DNA from: a virus
Lineage: Duplodnaviria; Heunggongvirae; Uroviricota; Caudoviricetes
IMG/VR virus record: IMGVR_UViG_2778261231_000003
Reading direction: 5' to 3' (one strand)
DNA length: 37,653 nucleotides
Shown: piece after piece, positions 1 to 5,912 of the stretch
Numbering within the stretch: the first letter of the stretch is position 1
How the letters are laid out: the number at the start of each line of letters is the position of its first letter
Made by a program: the position numbers and the translations under genes
Notes under the pieces: generated by a model
What the model was told of the DNA's origin: nothing
Seen by the model: only the letters and a program-made list of their open reading frames with translations
The model's database searches: none

Positions 1-128
1 CCACCGGTGAACTCAGCCCCCACCATGCCCACTGCGTTACCCTGTACCACAACGATTTAACCTGCGAAGCCGACACCCTTGGCAGTTGCGGCTACGTATA
101 CATCGCCATTTACCCCACTCAGAGTTAA
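1..128 (+). CDS. CbeA/YeeU-family antitoxin, C-terminal fragment (5' end lies outside the window)
   Basis: Frame ending at TAA 126-128 reads ...[29 protein letters not shown], matching the conserved C-terminus of CbeA/YeeU/YafW antitoxins (recalled from memory). The toxin gene starts 20 nt downstream. Confidence 0.6.
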
Positions 129-148
129 TTACCTTCACGAGAGTAAAC

Positions 149-490
149 ATGAAAACTTTACCTGCAACAACTCAGCGGGCGGCGAAGCCCTGCCTAGCAC
201 CCGTGGCTGTCTGGCAAATGCTACTGACCCGCCTGCTGAAACAGCACTATGGTCTCACCCTCAACGACACACCGTTCAGTGAGGAACGTGTTATACAGGA
301 ACATATCGATGCCGGAATCACGCTGGCTGATGCCGTGAATTTTCTGGTGGAAAAATACGAACTGGTGCGTATCGACAGGAAGGGATTTAACTGGCAGAAA
401 CAATCCCCTTATCTCCGGGCTGTAGACATTCTGCGAGCACGGCAGGCAACTGGCTTGTTGCGGCAAAGCCGTAACAACGTAGTACGATGA
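149..490 (+). CDS. cbtA: CbtA/YeeV/YkfI-family toxin (type IV toxin-antitoxin toxin)
   Basis: ORF-track product from [14 protein letters not shown]... carries the family motifs [18 protein letters not shown] and IDILRAR. The ATG at 149 (not the in-frame upstream start at 86) is chosen because it follows the antitoxin stop. Confidence 0.8.
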
Positions 491-591: not shown

Positions 592-871
592 ACGGACAAA
601 CAATCATGCAACCAGAAGTTGAAGTATTAACCGATCATAATGAGCTAATTTGTTCGAGCTTTATTGAACACATTGCCAACACATTAAATTTAGGAGTAGT
701 GTACAACTAAACCTGCAGCCAAGGATGTATAGTGAGCGAAGCCCTATCAGGCCTTTTTGGTCAGTAGATAAGATTGATCTTCGTTGATAGAATTTACTTA
801 CACCAGCTGTTACATTAAGATAATTTTTTGGTGGGAGAATGATAAGATCTTACGTAACAATTTGATTTTAA

Positions 872-917
872 TGGTGCCGATAATAGGAGTCGAACCTACG
901 ACCTTCGCATTACGAAT
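872..917 (-). repeat. 46-nt 3' fragment of a tRNA-Thr(CGU) gene (anticodon loop to CCA end): attachment-site remnant, not a functional tRNA
   Basis: Reverse complement of 872-917 is ATTCGTAATGCGAAGGTCGTAGGTTCGACTCCTATTATCGGCACCA (anticodon loop with CGT, T-arm GGTTCGACTCC, acceptor 3' strand, CCA). Sequence 5' of it (918 onward) cannot supply the D-arm or the 5' acceptor strand. Identity to E. coli thrW is from memory. Confidence 0.7.
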
Positions 918-1222
918 TATAAGAATCCGCTTCTAATTCAAAGCATTACCCCATCAACACTGCGCTCACACGTCCCACCACATCAAAACATGTAAAGCCT
1001 TGCAAGCCATTGCGAGGCCTTATGTGTCTCAGTTTTGTCCCACCTTGTATTACGACTTACATAGCCAATGAAGATAAACGTGACGGCAAACGGCGCAGCA
1101 GTCTTCTTTTCCTTCATACTTTCCCCACCCAGCATGCATACCTTTATGCCATAACTGAAGTTTATGTCTGTTATGAGCGAAAAGCAGACATTACACTAAA
1201 TTATTTAGGTTTACTTTTATCA

Positions 1223-2101
1223 TTACATTTCTAATGCTTTTTCTCTGCTAATTGATCCTTCACCATTGCAGGTTCTGCAATCTAATTTTATATTCCTGCA
1301 GTCAGGACAAGTGAATTTTTCATAATTAGAAAGATTCACCTTTGCAGCAATATATCTTTTTACGGATCCCATTCCATTACAGATCGGACAATCTTCTCCC
1401 GCTAAACTGCCTTTTCCATTACATAAAGGGCAAGTTACAGTGGATATCACTTCATTTTCATTTTCATTTTCATAAATAAAATTGTTGAAATTTTGGGCGT
1501 TTATTGTGCTTAGTTGAACTTTTTCAATTTTTTTTATGTGATGTTCAAAATACTTTTTAATTGCCTTCTTAAGATCCTCTTTAGACGATTTCCATTGTTC
1601 TGGTGAGATCCTAATCGATTGAAATCCTTCGTTACTAGTTATTACTGCATCACGCTTGTAAGTAGACTTAATTTTACTTTCCACATAATGAGCTATGTGG
1701 CCATCATACTCGATGCCAATAGCAGCAATCTCAACCAAATCTTGACCAATCCATCTATTTAGTCTAAGGACAAGGTCTATTGCCCAAGGCTGGGCTTTTG
1801 GGTTTATATTGCCAACCTTATACTGAGGCTCGATATAAACAATATGTCCGTTTGGGAATTGACCTTTCAGAGTTATTCGTCGTGGTGAATTTTGAAAACT
1901 ATCGATTTCCAATGGACTAAACTGAGATATGAGGCCGGCAATTACCTCTATCTCAGCCTGAGATGTTTTTTCCACTCCTTGTAAACTAATAAGACCGATA
2001 GCTACTTGACGGTTAGTGGCTGGCTCAATCCTTTTAAATAGTTTCTTCTGATTATTACTAAAATTATTTTTGATAACTTCAAGTGTTTCATCTAGTTCCA
2101 T
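1223..2101 (-). CDS. Predicted endonuclease: Vsr/DUF559-like PD-(D/E)xK core fused to a C-terminal DnaJ-type zinc finger (four CxxCxGxG motifs)
   Basis: ORF-track protein 1223..2110. Core motifs AIDLVL, GIEYDGHIAHY, KRDAVITSNEGFQSIRI follow the D...E-x-DG-x-H...RD...G pattern of Vsr/DUF559 endonucleases. C-terminus has CPLCNGKGS, CPICNGMGS, CPDCRN, CRTCNGEGS. ATG at 2101 preferred over GTG at 2110 because of a GGGTGAG Shine-Dalgarno. AT-rich codon usage. Confidence 0.55.
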   Translation of the reverse strand: MELDETLEVIKNNFSNNQKKLFKRIEPATNRQVAIGLISLQGVEKTSQAEIEVIAGLISQFSPLEIDSFQNSPRRITLKGQFPNGHIVYIEPQYKVGNINPKAQPWAIDLVLRLNRWIGQDLVEIAAIGIEYDGHIAHYVESKIKSTYKRDAVITSNEGFQSIRISPEQWKSSKEDLKKAIKKYFEHHIKKIEKVQLSTINAQNFNNFIYENENENEVISTVTCPLCNGKGSLAGEDCPICNGMGSVKRYIAAKVNLSNYEKFTCPDCRNIKLDCRTCNGEGSISREKALEM

Positions 2102-2233
2102 CTCACCCACTCTATAAACTGATTATCCATATAAACTACATTATCATTTTTAACTGCTCAACATAGATTAACATAGCGCGATGCTAACAGTGTCAACTCC
2201 TGGCACAGGGCTGTTGTTGCAGCCCTGACAACC

Positions 2234-2836
2234 TTAGACTTCAATCGATTCAGAGATCTCTAACACATCATCTACTTCAATACCCAGATAACGGACTGTG
2301 CTTTCCAGTTTCTTATGGCCCAACAGAAGTTGGATCACCCGAAGATTCTTGGTTTTCTTGTAGATCAGGTAAGGTTTTGTTCTTCTCATGGAATGAGTGC
2401 TGTAAAGCGAATCTTCGAGACCAAGCTTTTCTACCCACCCATGAAAAATTCGGTTGTATTGCCGGGTAGATATGAGCTGATTAGTTCCGACCAGAAACCG
2501 AAACAAGAAGTCTTTACTATGCAAATTGCCAAGCATTATCAATGCAGCAACAGCTTCTCTTGTCCCTTTGGTTATCTCAAACTGCACAGGGCTACCGGTT
2601 TTCTGTTGCAGCACCGTAGCTCTGCTTGAAGCAGAGCTACCATATGCAACATCAGATACTTTGAGTTTGACCAGATCACAGCCTCGTAGCTTACTGTCCA
2701 GGGCCATATCGAACTGAGCTAAATCGCGCGTTTTACCTTCCAGTTCAAGCCGGATTCGGATCCCCCAGATATGAGATATCTGAAGTGGTCTTTTTTGGCC
2801 GATGATACGGTCTTTGTTCCACGGTGACGTGTTCAT
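2234..2836 (-). CDS. Short tyrosine recombinase (catalytic domain only, ~200 aa): truncated integrase or FimB/FimE-size recombinase
   Basis: Catalytic signature visible: Arg in LRGCDL, H-x-x-R in HSMRRT, LLGH and Y in VRYLGI. Start at MNTSPW (ATG 2836) preceded by GGAGA; the ORF-track start at 2890 lacks a ribosome-binding site. Confidence 0.65.
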   Translation of the reverse strand: MNTSPWNKDRIIGQKRPLQISHIWGIRIRLELEGKTRDLAQFDMALDSKLRGCDLVKLKVSDVAYGSSASSRATVLQQKTGSPVQFEITKGTREAVAALIMLGNLHSKDFLFRFLVGTNQLISTRQYNRIFHGWVEKLGLEDSLYSTHSMRRTKPYLIYKKTKNLRVIQLLLGHKKLESTVRYLGIEVDDVLEISESIEV

Positions 2837-2872
2837 ACTCAAATCTCCTGCAATGTGGGAGATTTGAGTATG
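2834..2872. promoter_or_regulatory. Perfect 15-bp inverted repeat with 9-bp spacer overlapping the recombinase start codon and Shine-Dalgarno
   Basis: CATACTCAAATCTCC (2834-2848), spacer TGCAATGTG, GGAGATTTGAGTATG (2858-2872). Arms are exact reverse complements. Geometry resembles a recombinase core site or a translation-sequestering hairpin. Confidence 0.5.
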
Positions 2873-3042
2873 GTTGTCCCTTATGAGCAAATCGCAGACG
2901 TAACATCAAGTTCATAGCTACCCTGGAGCACCTTATTATCCTGTATAACGATAAGTTGGGAAGCCAGTGGCCTCACAGTGTCCCCAAGATGGTGGTGTCT
3001 CTGCACCAAAGATGCGCTAGTTCAAATGTTAGTAAATATAAT

Positions 3043-3954
3043 TTATATGTAATCAGGTAGTGAATTCAAAGCCATCACTCTTTCTCTTTCTTTTTCTGTC
3101 ATTTCTCTCATAACAATTTGAGATAGCGCTAATGTTATCTCCTTTGTTTTATTGAAGGCTTCTTTGGTATATGTTTTCCTTCCATACTCAAGTTCATTAA
3201 ATGTCCCCATAATCCATTTGAGATAGAATAATGGGATGGCTAGATCACTTATATCCTGCCATCTCGTAATCGCTTTATATTCATTCCAAAAATAATCCTC
3301 AAAATGCTTATCACAATCACCTTTACACGCATAATAAACCGCTATCACCTCATTTGGTTTGTCATCGTGTATGATCTCTGCATTGCACACAATGCCATCA
3401 TAATTTTCTTCATGATGGTTTTCTATTAAGTCCTTTCCACAACGATCACATTTTATAGGTAAGTACTTATCAAAAATCAAATGCTTGGGTTTTATTTTTT
3501 TATAGCTCTCAGGAAAGTATCTAAGGAGTAGTTTTGAGTAACCAATTCTGACTAAGTGATTTTCAATTAATTTACCATCAAAGAATCGAAAGTCCTTTAT
3601 TTTTCCATTCTCTTTTAATTGCGTCATTCTTGAATTTAAACCACTACTTGGCAGTGTTGAGTAAAATCCAATAAATCCGTCGGCATTGAATCCATCAATA
3701 CGTTCTTGTATATTAATCTCATCCTTTTCTGAAACTGATTTTTTACTTGTTGCATAATGTTTACAGCTAACAAGCCAACGAAATTTATATTTATTTAACT
3801 GACCTTGCAATTGCTCTGTGATTAAAAGATCTTTACCTCCATCTGCACCTCTATCTGGCGCGGATTCAATATAAAAGCCAAGTTCTTCAAGAAAATCACG
3901 GGCAAATGACTCCCAGGCTTCACCGTCACTATCAATTTCAGTAAAGTTAATCAT
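3043..3954 (-). CDS. Predicted Mrr-like (PD-(D/E)xK restriction-endonuclease fold) nuclease domain protein with Cys/His-rich C-terminal region
   Basis: N-terminus EAWESFARDFLEELGFYIESAPDRGADGGKDLLITEQ...FRWLVSCKHY fits the Mrr catalytic-domain pattern (acidic residue, D-x-G-x-D-L, Q/E-x-K). C-terminal part has CDRCGKDL...C...ACKGDCDKH. GGGAG Shine-Dalgarno 9 nt upstream of ATG 3954. Very AT-rich. Confidence 0.55.
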   Translation of the reverse strand: MINFTEIDSDGEAWESFARDFLEELGFYIESAPDRGADGGKDLLITEQLQGQLNKYKFRWLVSCKHYATSKKSVSEKDEINIQERIDGFNADGFIGFYSTLPSSGLNSRMTQLKENGKIKDFRFFDGKLIENHLVRIGYSKLLLRYFPESYKKIKPKHLIFDKYLPIKCDRCGKDLIENHHEENYDGIVCNAEIIHDDKPNEVIAVYYACKGDCDKHFEDYFWNEYKAITRWQDISDLAIPLFYLKWIMGTFNELEYGRKTYTKEAFNKTKEITLALSQIVMREMTEKERERVMALNSLPDYI

Positions 3955-4206
3955 TTGTTAACTCCCAAGCGTTGAGATATTTTTATATCTGTATTGTGGG
4001 CTTATTATAAGCGAATGTAATTATAATATCATACTAACAGACACAACTTCCGCTTCTGGTACATAGCAGACCAGAGACACTGGCGTAAAGCCATGGAGGA
4101 TCGGTGGGAGGAGGTAAAAATCCTCTCATGCAAAAAATACGCAAAATCGATAACAGTTGGAAATCATTCAATACTCGCACTATCGGAAGTTCACCAGCCA
4201 GTCGTA

Positions 4207-4240
4207 GCACGTTCTTGCATACGACGTGGCTACGGGTTTC
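4207..4240 (+). repeat. Direct repeat copy 1 (~34 bp, hairpin-capable), upstream of the GIY-YIG gene
   Basis: GCACGTTCTTGCATACGACGTGGCTACGGGTTTC; near-identical to 5226-5263 apart from 1-2 nt indels. Confidence 0.6.
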
Positions 4241-4331
4241 GAGACCGGTCCAATCATCAAACGAAACATAAAATTAATTCACATTATGAGGAAAAGTATC
4301 TTTTTTATACTATGTAAATTCAAAGGCTTAG

Positions 4332-5201
<870 letters not shown>

Positions 5202-5225
5202 GTCTTTAAGTGATAAGCATAAACC

Positions 5226-5263
5226 GCAGCACGATCTTCTTGCATACGACGTGCTACGGTTTC
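5226..5263 (+). repeat. Direct repeat copy 2, between the GIY-YIG stop and the invertase stop
   Basis: GCAGCACGATCTTCTTGCATACGACGTGCTACGGTTTC; internal inverted repeat AGCACG...CGTGCT. Overlaps the invertase stop codon (5262-5264) by 2 nt. Confidence 0.6.
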
Positions 5264-5816
5264 ATTTATCTCCGACCGGAAACTTCTTATACAGTGTCGA
5301 TATACCAACATCATAGATGATCGCCACCTTCTGGCGAGGAACGCCTGATGCAATTAATCGCCCGGCCTGCGCCCATTGTTCTGGTGTAAGTTTGGGACGA
5401 CGTCCCCCAATTCGTCCCTGTGCGCGAGCAGCTTCCAGTCCAGCTTTTGTTCGTTCAACAATCAGTTCTCGTTCCATTTCAGCCAGGGCACCCATCACAT
5501 GAAAGAAAAAACGCCCCATCGGTGTGCTGGTATCAATAGCATCCGTCAGGCTGCGAAAATTAACGCCACGTTCGCGCAACTCCTCAACCAGAATGACCAG
5601 ATGCCGCATACTACGCCCCAGCCGATCCAGCTTCCAGACAACCAGAGTGTCACCTGCCGATAATGTCCTGAGCAGTTTTTTCAGTCCCGGCCTTTCGGAC
5701 TTTGTACCGCTTATCTTGTCTTCAAAAATCAGCTCGCATCCTGCACAGTTCAGCGCATTACGTTGTAGATCTGTGTTCTGGTCATTTGTTGACACACGTA
5801 CATAGCCAATAAGCAT
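5262..5816 (-). CDS. Serine recombinase, DNA invertase of the Pin/Gin/Hin/Cin family
   Basis: N-terminus MLIGYVRVSTNDQNTDLQRNAL matches Pin/Gin invertases (from memory) and includes the catalytic serine; C-terminal HTH GVPRQKVAIIYDVGISTLYKK. GGGAGA Shine-Dalgarno upstream. Confidence 0.85.
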   Translation of the reverse strand: MLIGYVRVSTNDQNTDLQRNALNCAGCELIFEDKISGTKSERPGLKKLLRTLSAGDTLVVWKLDRLGRSMRHLVILVEELRERGVNFRSLTDAIDTSTPMGRFFFHVMGALAEMERELIVERTKAGLEAARAQGRIGGRRPKLTPEQWAQAGRLIASGVPRQKVAIIYDVGISTLYKKFPVGDK

Positions 5817-5912
5817 GGTAGATCTCCCTGACTGATTAGACTTGAGATAAATGACAGGGGATAAGTGAGATAATTATGGGAAGTACTGGGTCAACATGGG
5901 AAGAGACTGGAT

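Follow-up and report, generated by a model that had tools for sequence, protein, structure and literature searches.

We analysed a window of 37,653 bp (the whole stretch of IMG/VR virus record IMGVR_UViG_2778261231_000003, Caudoviricetes, numbered from its first letter), which contains a gene for a tyrosine recombinase that comprises only the catalytic domain. Comparison of this locus with its relatives in other genomes suggests that the gene belongs to a recombinase module inside an integron-like array of gene cassettes, that the array is organised by two lox-like, heterospecific site classes (T1 and T2), and that a hairpin over the start codon silences translation of the recombinase. We infer this mechanism from comparative data and hold it to be moderately probable. 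The coordinates of all features are collected in Table 1.

The recombinase gene is a 603-bp open reading frame, and the same gene is annotated by RefSeq in Escherichia coli 21EVA. Its stop codon occupies positions 2234-2236 and its AUG is the complement of 2834-2836. The sole Pfam match of the 200-residue product is Phage_integrase (PF00589; 55 bits against a cut-off of 27.1), which covers residues 35-184 and profile positions 21-166 of 172. Because this coverage starts at profile position 21, the catalytic domain begins approximately 15 residues after the N-terminus. The predicted catalytic residues R51, K79, H148, R151, H174 and Y183 are invariant or nearly so in alignments of the relatives, in which a conserved N-terminal motif, PWNKGxxxGQKxPL, is followed directly by the catalytic domain. 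An AlphaFold model calculated from a shallow alignment, with all sequences more than 74% identical, was unusable (predicted local distance difference test, pLDDT, of 45) and was replaced by a model from a deeper alignment. The latter shows a single domain with a pLDDT of 89, a predicted template modelling (TM) score of 0.85 and disordered residues 1-19. Foldseek matched it to the catalytic domains of XerA, XerH, Tn1549 Int, IntI, Cre and lambda Int, with a probability of 1.00 for XerA, XerH, IntI and Cre. The TM score was ~0.72 when normalised to the query and 0.43-0.55 when normalised to the targets; the latter values are lower because the targets have an additional core-binding domain. An initial annotation of the window, made from the letters alone, had described a catalytic-domain-only tyrosine recombinase with an R/HxxR/H/Y signature; the alignments, AlphaFold and Foldseek all agree with it on this point, and the set R/K/HxxR/H/Y is intact. 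The N-terminal domain that it reported as missing is indeed absent, but its size has to be revised: relative to Xer and Cre, the protein lacks a core-binding domain of ~100 residues and not one of ~150. The recombinase is probably enzymatically active.

A word-indexed search with the recombinase found thousands of homologues. The best 120, of which nearly all have 194-203 residues, are 74-93% identical to it and stem from hosts such as Escherichia, Proteus, Providencia, Pantoea, Erwinia, Idiomarina and Pseudoalteromonas. A HMMER search of 1.84 billion cluster representatives returned 327 clusters (50% identity) at E<=1e-30. None of the best 150 of these exceeds 296 residues, and no integrase of 350-400 residues is among them. 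The near-full-length matches have ~200-210 residues and align recombinase residues 4-200 to positions around 14-210. Both the length of 200 residues and the PWNKGxxxGQKxPL motif recur across Gamma- and Betaproteobacteria.

The protein scores below the cut-off of every curated subfamily model, namely XerA/integron-integrase (NF040815, 44.7 bits against 220), XerC (TIGR02224, 40 against 335), XerD (TIGR02225, 23 against 330), XerS and the FimB/E-type invertases (tyrosine-type DNA invertase NF007371, 15.9 against 222, with only residues 120-184 matched). We therefore regard it as complete and as belonging to a family of tyrosine recombinases, so far uncharacterised, that have the catalytic domain only. 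By its sequence relationships, it is an untruncated representative of a widespread family of ~200 residues. A phmmer search of PDB sequences gave no match. Neither did the defence-system models of PADLOC, and the recombinase is therefore not a component of a known defence system. Among cultured phage genomes no close homologue was found (best 55% identical); the element is island- or plasmid-borne and not part of functional phages. In complete E. coli genomes the gene is present in 828 of 5426 (~15%), nearly always with 603 bp.

The gene lies in a module of 700 bp (2192-2899) which contains, in mRNA-sense order, a T2 site, the start hairpin, the coding sequence, a stem-loop and a T1 site. When seven E. 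coli loci with unrelated flanks were aligned, conservation of the module set in abruptly ~20-27 bp before the inverted repeat of the start hairpin and stopped abruptly ~43 bp 3' of the stop codon. A search using the module ends revealed that both are copies of a dispersed 24-bp element. This junction element is built up from 8-bp inverted arms (GTCCGCTT and AAGCGGAC) around an asymmetric 8-bp spacer. Two spacer classes exist, T1 with TGTGCCAG and T2 with TGAGCGAR, which differ at spacer positions 3 and 6; the complete sites read GTCCGCTn-TGTGCCAG-AAGCGGAC for T1 and GTCCGCTn-TGAGCGAR-RAGCGGAC for T2. At the module the gene-facing arms of both flanking sites deviate from the consensus: in the window this holds for arm GTCCCTTA of the T2 site at 2876-2899, and the gene-proximal arm of the T1 site at 2192-2215 is degenerate and overlaps the hairpin behind the stop codon.

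In 23 enterobacterial loci we found 106 such sites, compared with 1 in shuffled controls. Positions 3 and 6 of the spacer carry either T..C or A..G in 94 of 102 distinct sites, and hybrid spacers make up the other 8 of 102. The relative orientation of T1 and T2 is inverted in all but 2 of 84 neighbouring pairs. A cassette is a T1-genes-T2 unit, of which we collected 42 clean examples with 0.36-5.6 kb and 1-5 genes in either orientation. Cassettes are joined via composite T2-(15-18 nt)-T1 junctions (n=18, start-to-start spacing 39-42 bp), and a further conserved flank of ~9 bp is present on the cassette side of each site in these junctions. The recombinase gene fills the position of the junction linker and always reads from T2 to T1, both in the 23 enterobacterial loci and in ~30 loci from IMG/VR. 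IMG/VR loci which had been left out of the derivation of the consensus follow the same T1/T2 cassette grammar.

The composite junction is intergenic, occurs in ~1029 E. coli genomes at no more than four places each and is confined to these islands; it is therefore not a genome-wide repeat of the repetitive extragenic palindrome (REP) type. Composite junctions fold into strong hairpins. The two halves of a junction pair at 22.2 of 33 positions, however, compared with 22.5 for halves taken from different junctions (permutation p = 0.8). Since the halves do not covary, the junction is conserved at the level of its sequence, and a model in which it acts as a folded single strand like attC was dropped as the preferred one.

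The genes next to the recombinase vary by strain; among them are those for an Mrr-like nuclease, an HNH nuclease, DUF4145, an hsdR-like product, a dynamin-like protein, FRG plus a kinase, a CBS protein and a reverse transcriptase. Defence functions among 127 cassette proteins comprise SIR2-HerA (three times), DUF4238, a Lit-type peptidase U49, HEC-08 and DUF3644. The other cargo includes GNAT acetyltransferases, LysR regulators, transporters of the MFS, BCCT and ArsB types, NUDIX proteins and short-chain dehydrogenases. In four IMG/VR loci (L143-L146) a 361-bp remnant with only the last ~39 recombinase codons is located between an intact T2 and an intact T1, and in L158-L161 the recombinase is disrupted with both flanking cassettes still present. 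Arrays thus outlive their recombinase, comparable to the clusters of attC sites lacking integron integrases (CALINs).

Several pairs of loci differ in a way that is expected for exchange at the sites. A copy of the Mrr cassette of the window (2884-4071) with 91% identity is found at an unrelated locus of E. coli BE2-5 (L088), where it occurs alone and ends in the same two sites; the homology begins at 2884, the boundary between arm and spacer of T2, and ends at the outer edge of T1. A Pectobacterium plasmid (L008, 1732-4193) and an IMG/VR contig (L122, 915-3379) share a 96% identical block that runs exactly from a T1 site to the next T1 site, and the cassettes beyond it differ. In an all-against-all comparison, non-recombinase homology blocks of L006/L089 and of L009/L021 end within 0 bp of a site, and those of L007/L013 do so at their outer ends. 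The window, CS18F (L003) and DETEC-P61 (L089) have backbones that are 97-98% identical through the terminal T2 and T1 sites. Between these sites they contain entirely different cassettes, and their recombinases are just 92-93% identical. A small circular contig with the Mrr cassette was not found in the 24 of 782 blocks with the longest contigs, which gave chromosomal contexts only.

The solitary Mrr cassette of BE2-5 (L088:5960-7200) is centred in an 18-bp perfect palindrome of its flanks, AATCTGACA on one side and TGTCAGATT on the other. A short motif, TGTCAG, follows some T2 sites and also the stop codon of the recombinase. The palindrome or the TGTCAG motif may represent a target or an accessory motif.

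The sites accompany the enzyme beyond the Enterobacterales. In Pseudomonas relatives (~60% identical proteins) the gene has GTCGCTAA-CCGGCCAG-AAGCGGMC in inverted orientation on its two sides, and inverted GTCGCTAACCGGCCAGAAGCGGMC around these genes gave 22 matches compared with 0 in shuffles. A Pelomonas relative is flanked by CGTCCGCTTCCG and CGGAAGCGGCCG. In 80 genome loci the motif CAGAAGCGGAC, with up to two mismatches, was found near the gene in 26% on each side and in 2.9% of the controls, using windows of 130 nt downstream and 150 nt upstream of the recombinase gene; this corresponds to an enrichment of ~9-fold.

The start of the recombinase gene is covered by an inverted repeat with perfect 15-nt arms (CATACTCAAATCTCC and GGAGATTTGAGTATG, 100% complementary) and a 9-nt spacer. 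That such a repeat lies over the Shine-Dalgarno (SD) sequence and the start codon had been noted initially, and the repeat finder and a direct reading of the sequence concur. On the mRNA the 3' arm reads GGAGAUUUGAGUAUG, in which 8 nt separate the SD motif GGAG (complement of 2845-2848) from the AUG. No other perfect inverted repeat of at least 12 nt with a loop of up to 20 nt occurs in the window; 20 shuffles of the window yielded none, and the analytic expectation is 6e-4. The search for other copies of the 15-nt arm, which the initial annotation had proposed, found none in the window with up to two mismatches allowed. Rfam gave no relevant match in 1000-4400.

Folding of the 86-nt leader of the window predicted the 15-bp stem in both the minimum free energy (MFE) structure and the centroid structure, with -22.5 kcal/mol and z = -3.8, which places it in the strongest class. 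When the leaders of 82 distinct relatives were folded, most were predicted to have a stem in which CUCC is base-paired to the GGAG in the ribosome-binding site (RBS); in 33 of these leaders the whole AUG is paired. The bases flanking CTCC/GGAG vary by lineage yet remain complementary (AAATCTCC/GGAGATTT, TTGTCCTCC/GGAGGACAA, GACTCC/GGAGTC and GGTTCTCC/GGAGAACC); the three pairs beyond this core are T-A/C-G/A-T, A-T/T-A/G-C or A-T/G-C/C-G. In a count anchored on the core, 106 of 132 positions in these three pairs were paired, compared with 69 +/- 4.8 (maximum 87) in permutations, and each of the three flanking stem positions shows three or four Watson-Crick pair types. The stem is kept in relatives with just 57% protein identity, although loops of 7 to 14 nt and bulged stems both occur. 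Between Enterobacterales and Pseudomonas the hairpin arms are completely different, whereas the site arm AAGCGG(A/C)C is kept. Arms that drift in sequence while their complementarity stays argue for a hairpin rather than a site read by a conserved protein. Of the readings offered initially, an mRNA hairpin over the RBS is the one that these comparative data favour, and most likely, to judge from the covarying stem, the 15-bp repeat is an mRNA hairpin that sequesters the RBS and the start codon of the recombinase.

A Leclercia relative (L014:9959-10004) carries the 9-nt loop exactly reverse-complemented (TGCAATGTG compared with CACATTGCA in the window), with otherwise identical arms; in mRNA sense its loop is UGCAAUGUG, the flipped form of CACAUUGCA. 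Within the perfect repeat, then, a small segment has inverted, as also happens in hairpin loops elsewhere.

Upstream of the module lies a variable cassette, which is often transcribed toward it. A sigma-70 scan gave no consensus promoter match inside the module, including its part upstream of the stem. By eye a weak promoter candidate, GGGACA-17-CACATT, can be recognised in the module, which we do not count as evidence.

Based on these comparisons we infer that the recombinase acts on T1 and T2, that the two classes are heterospecific like loxP and lox2272, and that the hairpin blocks translation of the recombinase. In the proposed mechanism the recombinase would bind the 8-bp arms and perform strand exchange across the 8-bp spacer. 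Since T1 and T2 differ at spacer positions 3 and 6, they are expected to be heterospecific. Recombination of T1 with T1, or of T2 with T2, between neighbouring junctions would excise a circle of one cassette and one composite junction, able to enter any array again. If a T1xT1 and a T2xT2 event took place together between two arrays, the block between the sites would be exchanged as in recombinase-mediated cassette exchange, and this matches the cassette replacement seen between identical backbones. Events between T1 and T2, that is inversion or deletion of a cassette, would be blocked by the spacer heterology, which would explain why hybrid spacers are rare and why the recombinase module keeps a single orientation. 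Transcripts that enter from the upstream cassette would fold into the hairpin of approximately -22 kcal/mol with SD and AUG buried and would stay untranslated; such fold-back inhibition would keep recombinase levels very low. A wider claim, namely that this is a second, integron-independent gene-cassette system of Proteobacteria in which a hairpin-silenced recombinase of 200 residues and its T1/T2 sites swap cassettes among chromosomes, plasmids and prophage-associated islands, is one on which our comparative analysis leaves us evenly divided.

Some observations weigh against this interpretation. Approximately one quarter of the neighbouring site pairs do not alternate between T1 and T2, which we attribute to degenerate sites missed by the scan. 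In many betaproteobacterial relatives the enterobacterial site motif was not recognised; their sites may have diverged. The loci were fetched via the recombinase, so the strength of the association between site and recombinase is not an unbiased estimate. Homologous recombination within the 24-bp sites or within the 700-bp module could produce some of the same breakpoints. With regard to the hairpin, about half of the distant relatives pair the SD sequence only and not the AUG in the folded leaders, and the counts of G-U and A-C appositions in the stem (19 and 13) do not tell whether its symmetry is that of an RNA hairpin or of a DNA site. RNAalifold predicted no pairs when given 48 leaders aligned with MAFFT, because GGAG was misaligned and the alignment out of register; the covariation evidence consequently depends on our own anchored count.

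The repeat over the start codon could instead be a DNA site of the recombinase, either its core site, like attI beside intI or difSL beside xerS, or an operator for repression of its own gene. Its 15-9-15 geometry is near the 13-8-13 of lox and FRT, it adjoins the gene, with the T2 site only 3 nt away, and its dyad symmetry is conserved with wobble statistics that are compatible with a DNA site; the loop inverted in one lineage means that the DNA between the arms has flipped at least once. However, the arms are not conserved across relatives whose proteins and T-site arm are, and the only constant parts, CTCC/GGAG and often CAT/ATG, are translation signals. No second copy of the repeat exists in the window or in the cassette arrays, where T1 and T2 mark every boundary: a different conserved 24-bp element, and not the repeat, flanks the gene and the cassettes. 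Conservation of the module also extends past the repeat as far as the T2 site, and the tolerated bulges and variable loop length would be unusual for a strand-exchange spacer. We consider such a DNA site, of which the initial annotation had proposed the core-site form, unlikely, and the operator role a minority possibility. That the gene is merely the 3' remnant of a full-length phage or island integrase, with the repeat as the breakpoint of the truncation, was another initial proposal. The gene does lie in a decayed prophage or island region beside integrase fragments, but homologues of the same length and with the same N-terminal motif number in the thousands, no longer relative is among the best 150 cluster representatives, and the repeat persists at 57% protein identity, which makes truncation scarcely credible.

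The FimB/FimE reading, also raised in the initial annotation with regard to size, would make the enzyme an invertase that flips the module or a neighbouring cassette and thereby phase-varies the adjacent defence genes. The recombinase has the size of FimB/E and likewise has no core-binding domain, the gene and each cassette are flanked by inverted sites, and in Pseudomonas both flanking sites are of one spacer type, which would permit inversion. Yet the invertase model NF007371 is missed by a wide margin, the orientation of the gene relative to its flanking sites is fixed in all enterobacterial and IMG/VR loci examined and never reversed, and the hybrid spacers expected from T1xT2 inversion are rare; between strains it is the cassette content that differs, not the orientation. 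This reading appears quite improbable to us. T1 and T2 might also have nothing to do with the recombinase and represent terminator- or REP-like palindromes, sites of another factor or miniature derivatives of the module ends, with the mosaic produced by homologous recombination at these short sequences and the recombinase as a selfish passenger. In favour of this, the composite T2-linker-T1 resembles both module ends without the gene and folds into strong hairpins, cassettes without a nearby recombinase exist (L088), and the composite is found in slightly more E. coli genomes than the gene (1029 compared with 828). On the other hand, 8-bp arms, an asymmetric 8-bp spacer, two classes and a strict orientation are the signature of a tyrosine recombinase and not of a terminator; 24 bp are far too short for efficient RecA recombination; the sites are few per genome, intergenic and limited to these islands; and they flank the gene in distantly related hosts. 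Independence of sites and recombinase is thus doubtful in our view, and we continue to prefer a recombinase that acts on T1 and T2.

Table 1. Features of the recombinase module and its flanking cassettes in the 37,653-bp window.
Feature	Position	Strand	Basis
Tyrosine recombinase gene, catalytic domain only, 200 residues	2234..2836	-	603-bp open reading frame; Pfam PF00589; conserved residues; AlphaFold; Foldseek
T2 site GTCCCTTA TGAGCAAA TCGCAGAC, 3 nt upstream of hairpin, 5' module end	2876..2899	+	
Inverted-repeat arm GGAGATTTGAGTATG, 5' strand of mRNA stem (anti-SD/anti-AUG)	2858..2872	-	MFE and centroid stem
Hairpin loop of 9 nt, CACAUUGCA on mRNA	2849..2857	-	
Inverted-repeat arm CATACTCAAATCTCC, 3' strand of mRNA stem, with SD GGAG and AUG	2834..2848	-	
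Perfect 12-bp palindrome with 1-nt centre, inside recombinase coding sequence	2616..2640	.	Repeat finder
Stem-loop directly 3' of stop codon, CAGGGCTG / CAGCCCTG, 6-nt loop	2206..2227	-	Conserved in E. coli copies
T1 site, mRNA sense AACAGCCC TGTGCCAG GAGTTGAC, 3' module end	2192..2215	-	
Cassette 1, Mrr_cat-like restriction endonuclease gene 3043-3954	2900..4047	-	Pfam Mrr_cat
T1 site, far end of upstream cassette, backbone boundary; + strand TTCCGCTT CTGGTACA TAGCAGAC	4048..4071	-	
Cassette 2, gene 1223-2110	1190..2191	-	Pfam, PADLOC
T2 site GTCTGTTA TGAGCGAA AAGCAGAC, far end of downstream cassette, backbone boundary	1166..1189	+	

The stem-loop behind the stop codon has no U-tract, and an analogous hairpin is present 3' of the gene in the Pseudomonas relatives. 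The palindrome within the coding sequence, GTAGCTCTGCTT C AAGCAGAGCTAC, encodes GSSASSRA; its arms CTCTGCTT/AAGCAGAG are similar to those of the junction sites but are not separated by an 8-bp spacer. Other recombinase alleles have an imperfect version. In the L138 allele the palindrome is perfect with other bases (GTTGCTCTGTTT C AAACAGAGCAAC), a compensatory change. Possible explanations of the palindrome are an internal binding site, a hairpin in RNA or DNA, and 'perfecting' by template switching.

The protein encoded in cassette 2 (1223-2110, minus strand) contains two zinc fingers of the DnaJ type (CXXCXGXG) in addition to a weak REase_MTES_1575-like region. With its C-terminus it matches the PADLOC candidate PDC-M01B (5e-15), and it is a putative, uncharacterised defence protein. 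Outside the array, a GIY-YIG protein (4377-5201, plus strand) matches the PADLOC model PD-T4-3 (2.7e-140) and is adjoined by a Pin-type small serine invertase (5262-5816, minus strand). Sister strains have DUF4145 or GmrSD at the same position; this is a second variable defence slot, which is not bounded by T1/T2 on both sides. At the left edge of the window lies a gene for a CbtA-family type IV toxin (86-490, plus strand; Pfam 1.1e-65). The left flank of the array differs by strain: a P4-type integrase in 21EVA, the pao operon in DETEC-P61 and cbtA in the window. The DNA of the window is that of E. coli; positions 866-5832 are 99% identical to E. coli 21EVA, and the homology stops at ~5832. 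Directly after this position the minus strand encodes homologues of Mor and GemA, which are Mu-like middle-region genes, and a Mu-like prophage thus seems to border on the pin gene at the place where other strains have an invertible tail-fibre segment.

If the proposed mechanism is correct, it would provide a missing mechanism for the rapid turnover of defence genes at prophage, satellite and island hotspots. The cassettes often carry anti-phage genes. A 2026 survey of P2/P4 hotspots states that transposons are nearly absent there, considers homologous recombination unable to explain exchanges with unrelated elements, and leaves the exchange mechanism open (PMC13586616). A dedicated site-specific cassette system, found in many further Proteobacteria besides ~15% of complete E. 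coli genomes, would offer a definite candidate for this role. It would also constitute a gene-capture platform beside integrons, with a cargo that includes SIR2-HerA, a Lit-like protease, DUF4238, GNAT acetyltransferases and transporters. A recombinase of 200 residues with 24-bp sites and a built-in heterospecific pair could make an attractive, compact tool for cassette exchange. The hairpin would neatly illustrate how a recombinase can be insulated, at the level of translation, from transcription that comes in from outside, and taken alone it is of moderate interest. A literature search by keyword and site sequence, whose coverage left out most subscription journals, found no description of the sites or arrays of this family. 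A 2026 paper on recombinases as markers of defence systems deals with small serine recombinases and uses unrelated tyrosine recombinases only as a control. The cassette-exchange system is apparently undescribed.

Among known systems, integrons also place a tyrosine recombinase gene beside or inside an array of exchangeable cassettes with palindromic sites, carry a mixed cargo of defence, detoxification and acetyltransferase genes, and include cassettes without a nearby recombinase. IntI, however, has ~320 residues with a core-binding domain and an IntI-specific insertion, whereas the present enzyme has 200 residues in a single domain. The attC sites are conserved in structure and variable in sequence with paired halves, in contrast to sites that are conserved in sequence and whose halves do not covary. 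An integron cassette has one attC, compared with two heterotypic sites per cassette here; the present cassettes also differ in having 1-5 genes in either orientation, and the recombinase gene lies within the array between cassettes and not at one end. The modules bounded by pdif sites in Acinetobacter are similar in that short sites of alternating orientation enclose gene modules which recur in different contexts. They use the host XerC/XerD and not a dedicated recombinase. A dif site has 28 bp in an 11-6-11 arrangement; the present 8-8-8 site, GTCCGCTT-N8-AAGCGGAC, is unrelated to it in sequence.

The heterospecific mutants of Cre/lox (lox2272, lox511) share the inverted arms and the asymmetric 8-bp spacer, and cassettes flanked by one site of each class together with replacement of whole blocks are the expected outcome of Cre/lox cassette exchange. 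As in those mutants, the two classes described here differ at two internal spacer positions; the arrangement here is a natural one, with putative heterospecificity. The arms have 8 bp, possibly extended by the ~9 bp on the cassette side, compared with 13 bp in loxP, and the recombinase is devoid of the N-terminal domain of Cre. In the R64 shufflon (Rci, sfx), too, multiple sites of one tyrosine recombinase separate DNA segments. In an sfx site just one arm is conserved and only inversion is supported, whereas the sites described here have two conserved arms and the strains vary in gene content. A relation to Rci was considered and rejected (BLASTP E = 0.39 and an hhalign probability of 0.4% against R64 Rci), the two being unrelated beyond the superfamily. 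The core of the T1 spacer, GTGCCA(G/A), for example at 4048-4071, is the same as the 7-bp spacer of R64 sfx, GTGCCAA; this resemblance may be a coincidence. FimB and FimE are likewise catalytic-domain-only proteins of ~200 residues, but their family model failed for the present recombinase, which shows no invertible-switch behaviour in the loci compared and has a different site architecture. These sequence comparisons place the recombinase outside the IntI, Xer, FimB/E and Rci families.

With respect to regulation, IS10 and IS50 are the relevant precedents. Read-through transcripts of these elements fold such that the RBS of the transposase is blocked, a process known as fold-back inhibition. 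As in the present module, a sequence at the edge of the element is complementary to the RBS and the start codon of the recombinase gene. The enzyme here is a tyrosine recombinase and not a DDE transposase, and the stem is longer, with 15 perfect pairs. In IS10 and IS50 the native transcript starts from the element's own promoter, which is located 3' of the 5' arm, and stays unfolded; in the present module the sigma-70 scan identified no such internal promoter. Taken together, the system seems to resemble integrons and the Acinetobacter pdif modules most closely in function, Cre/lox exchange in the logic of its sites, and IS10/IS50 in its regulation.

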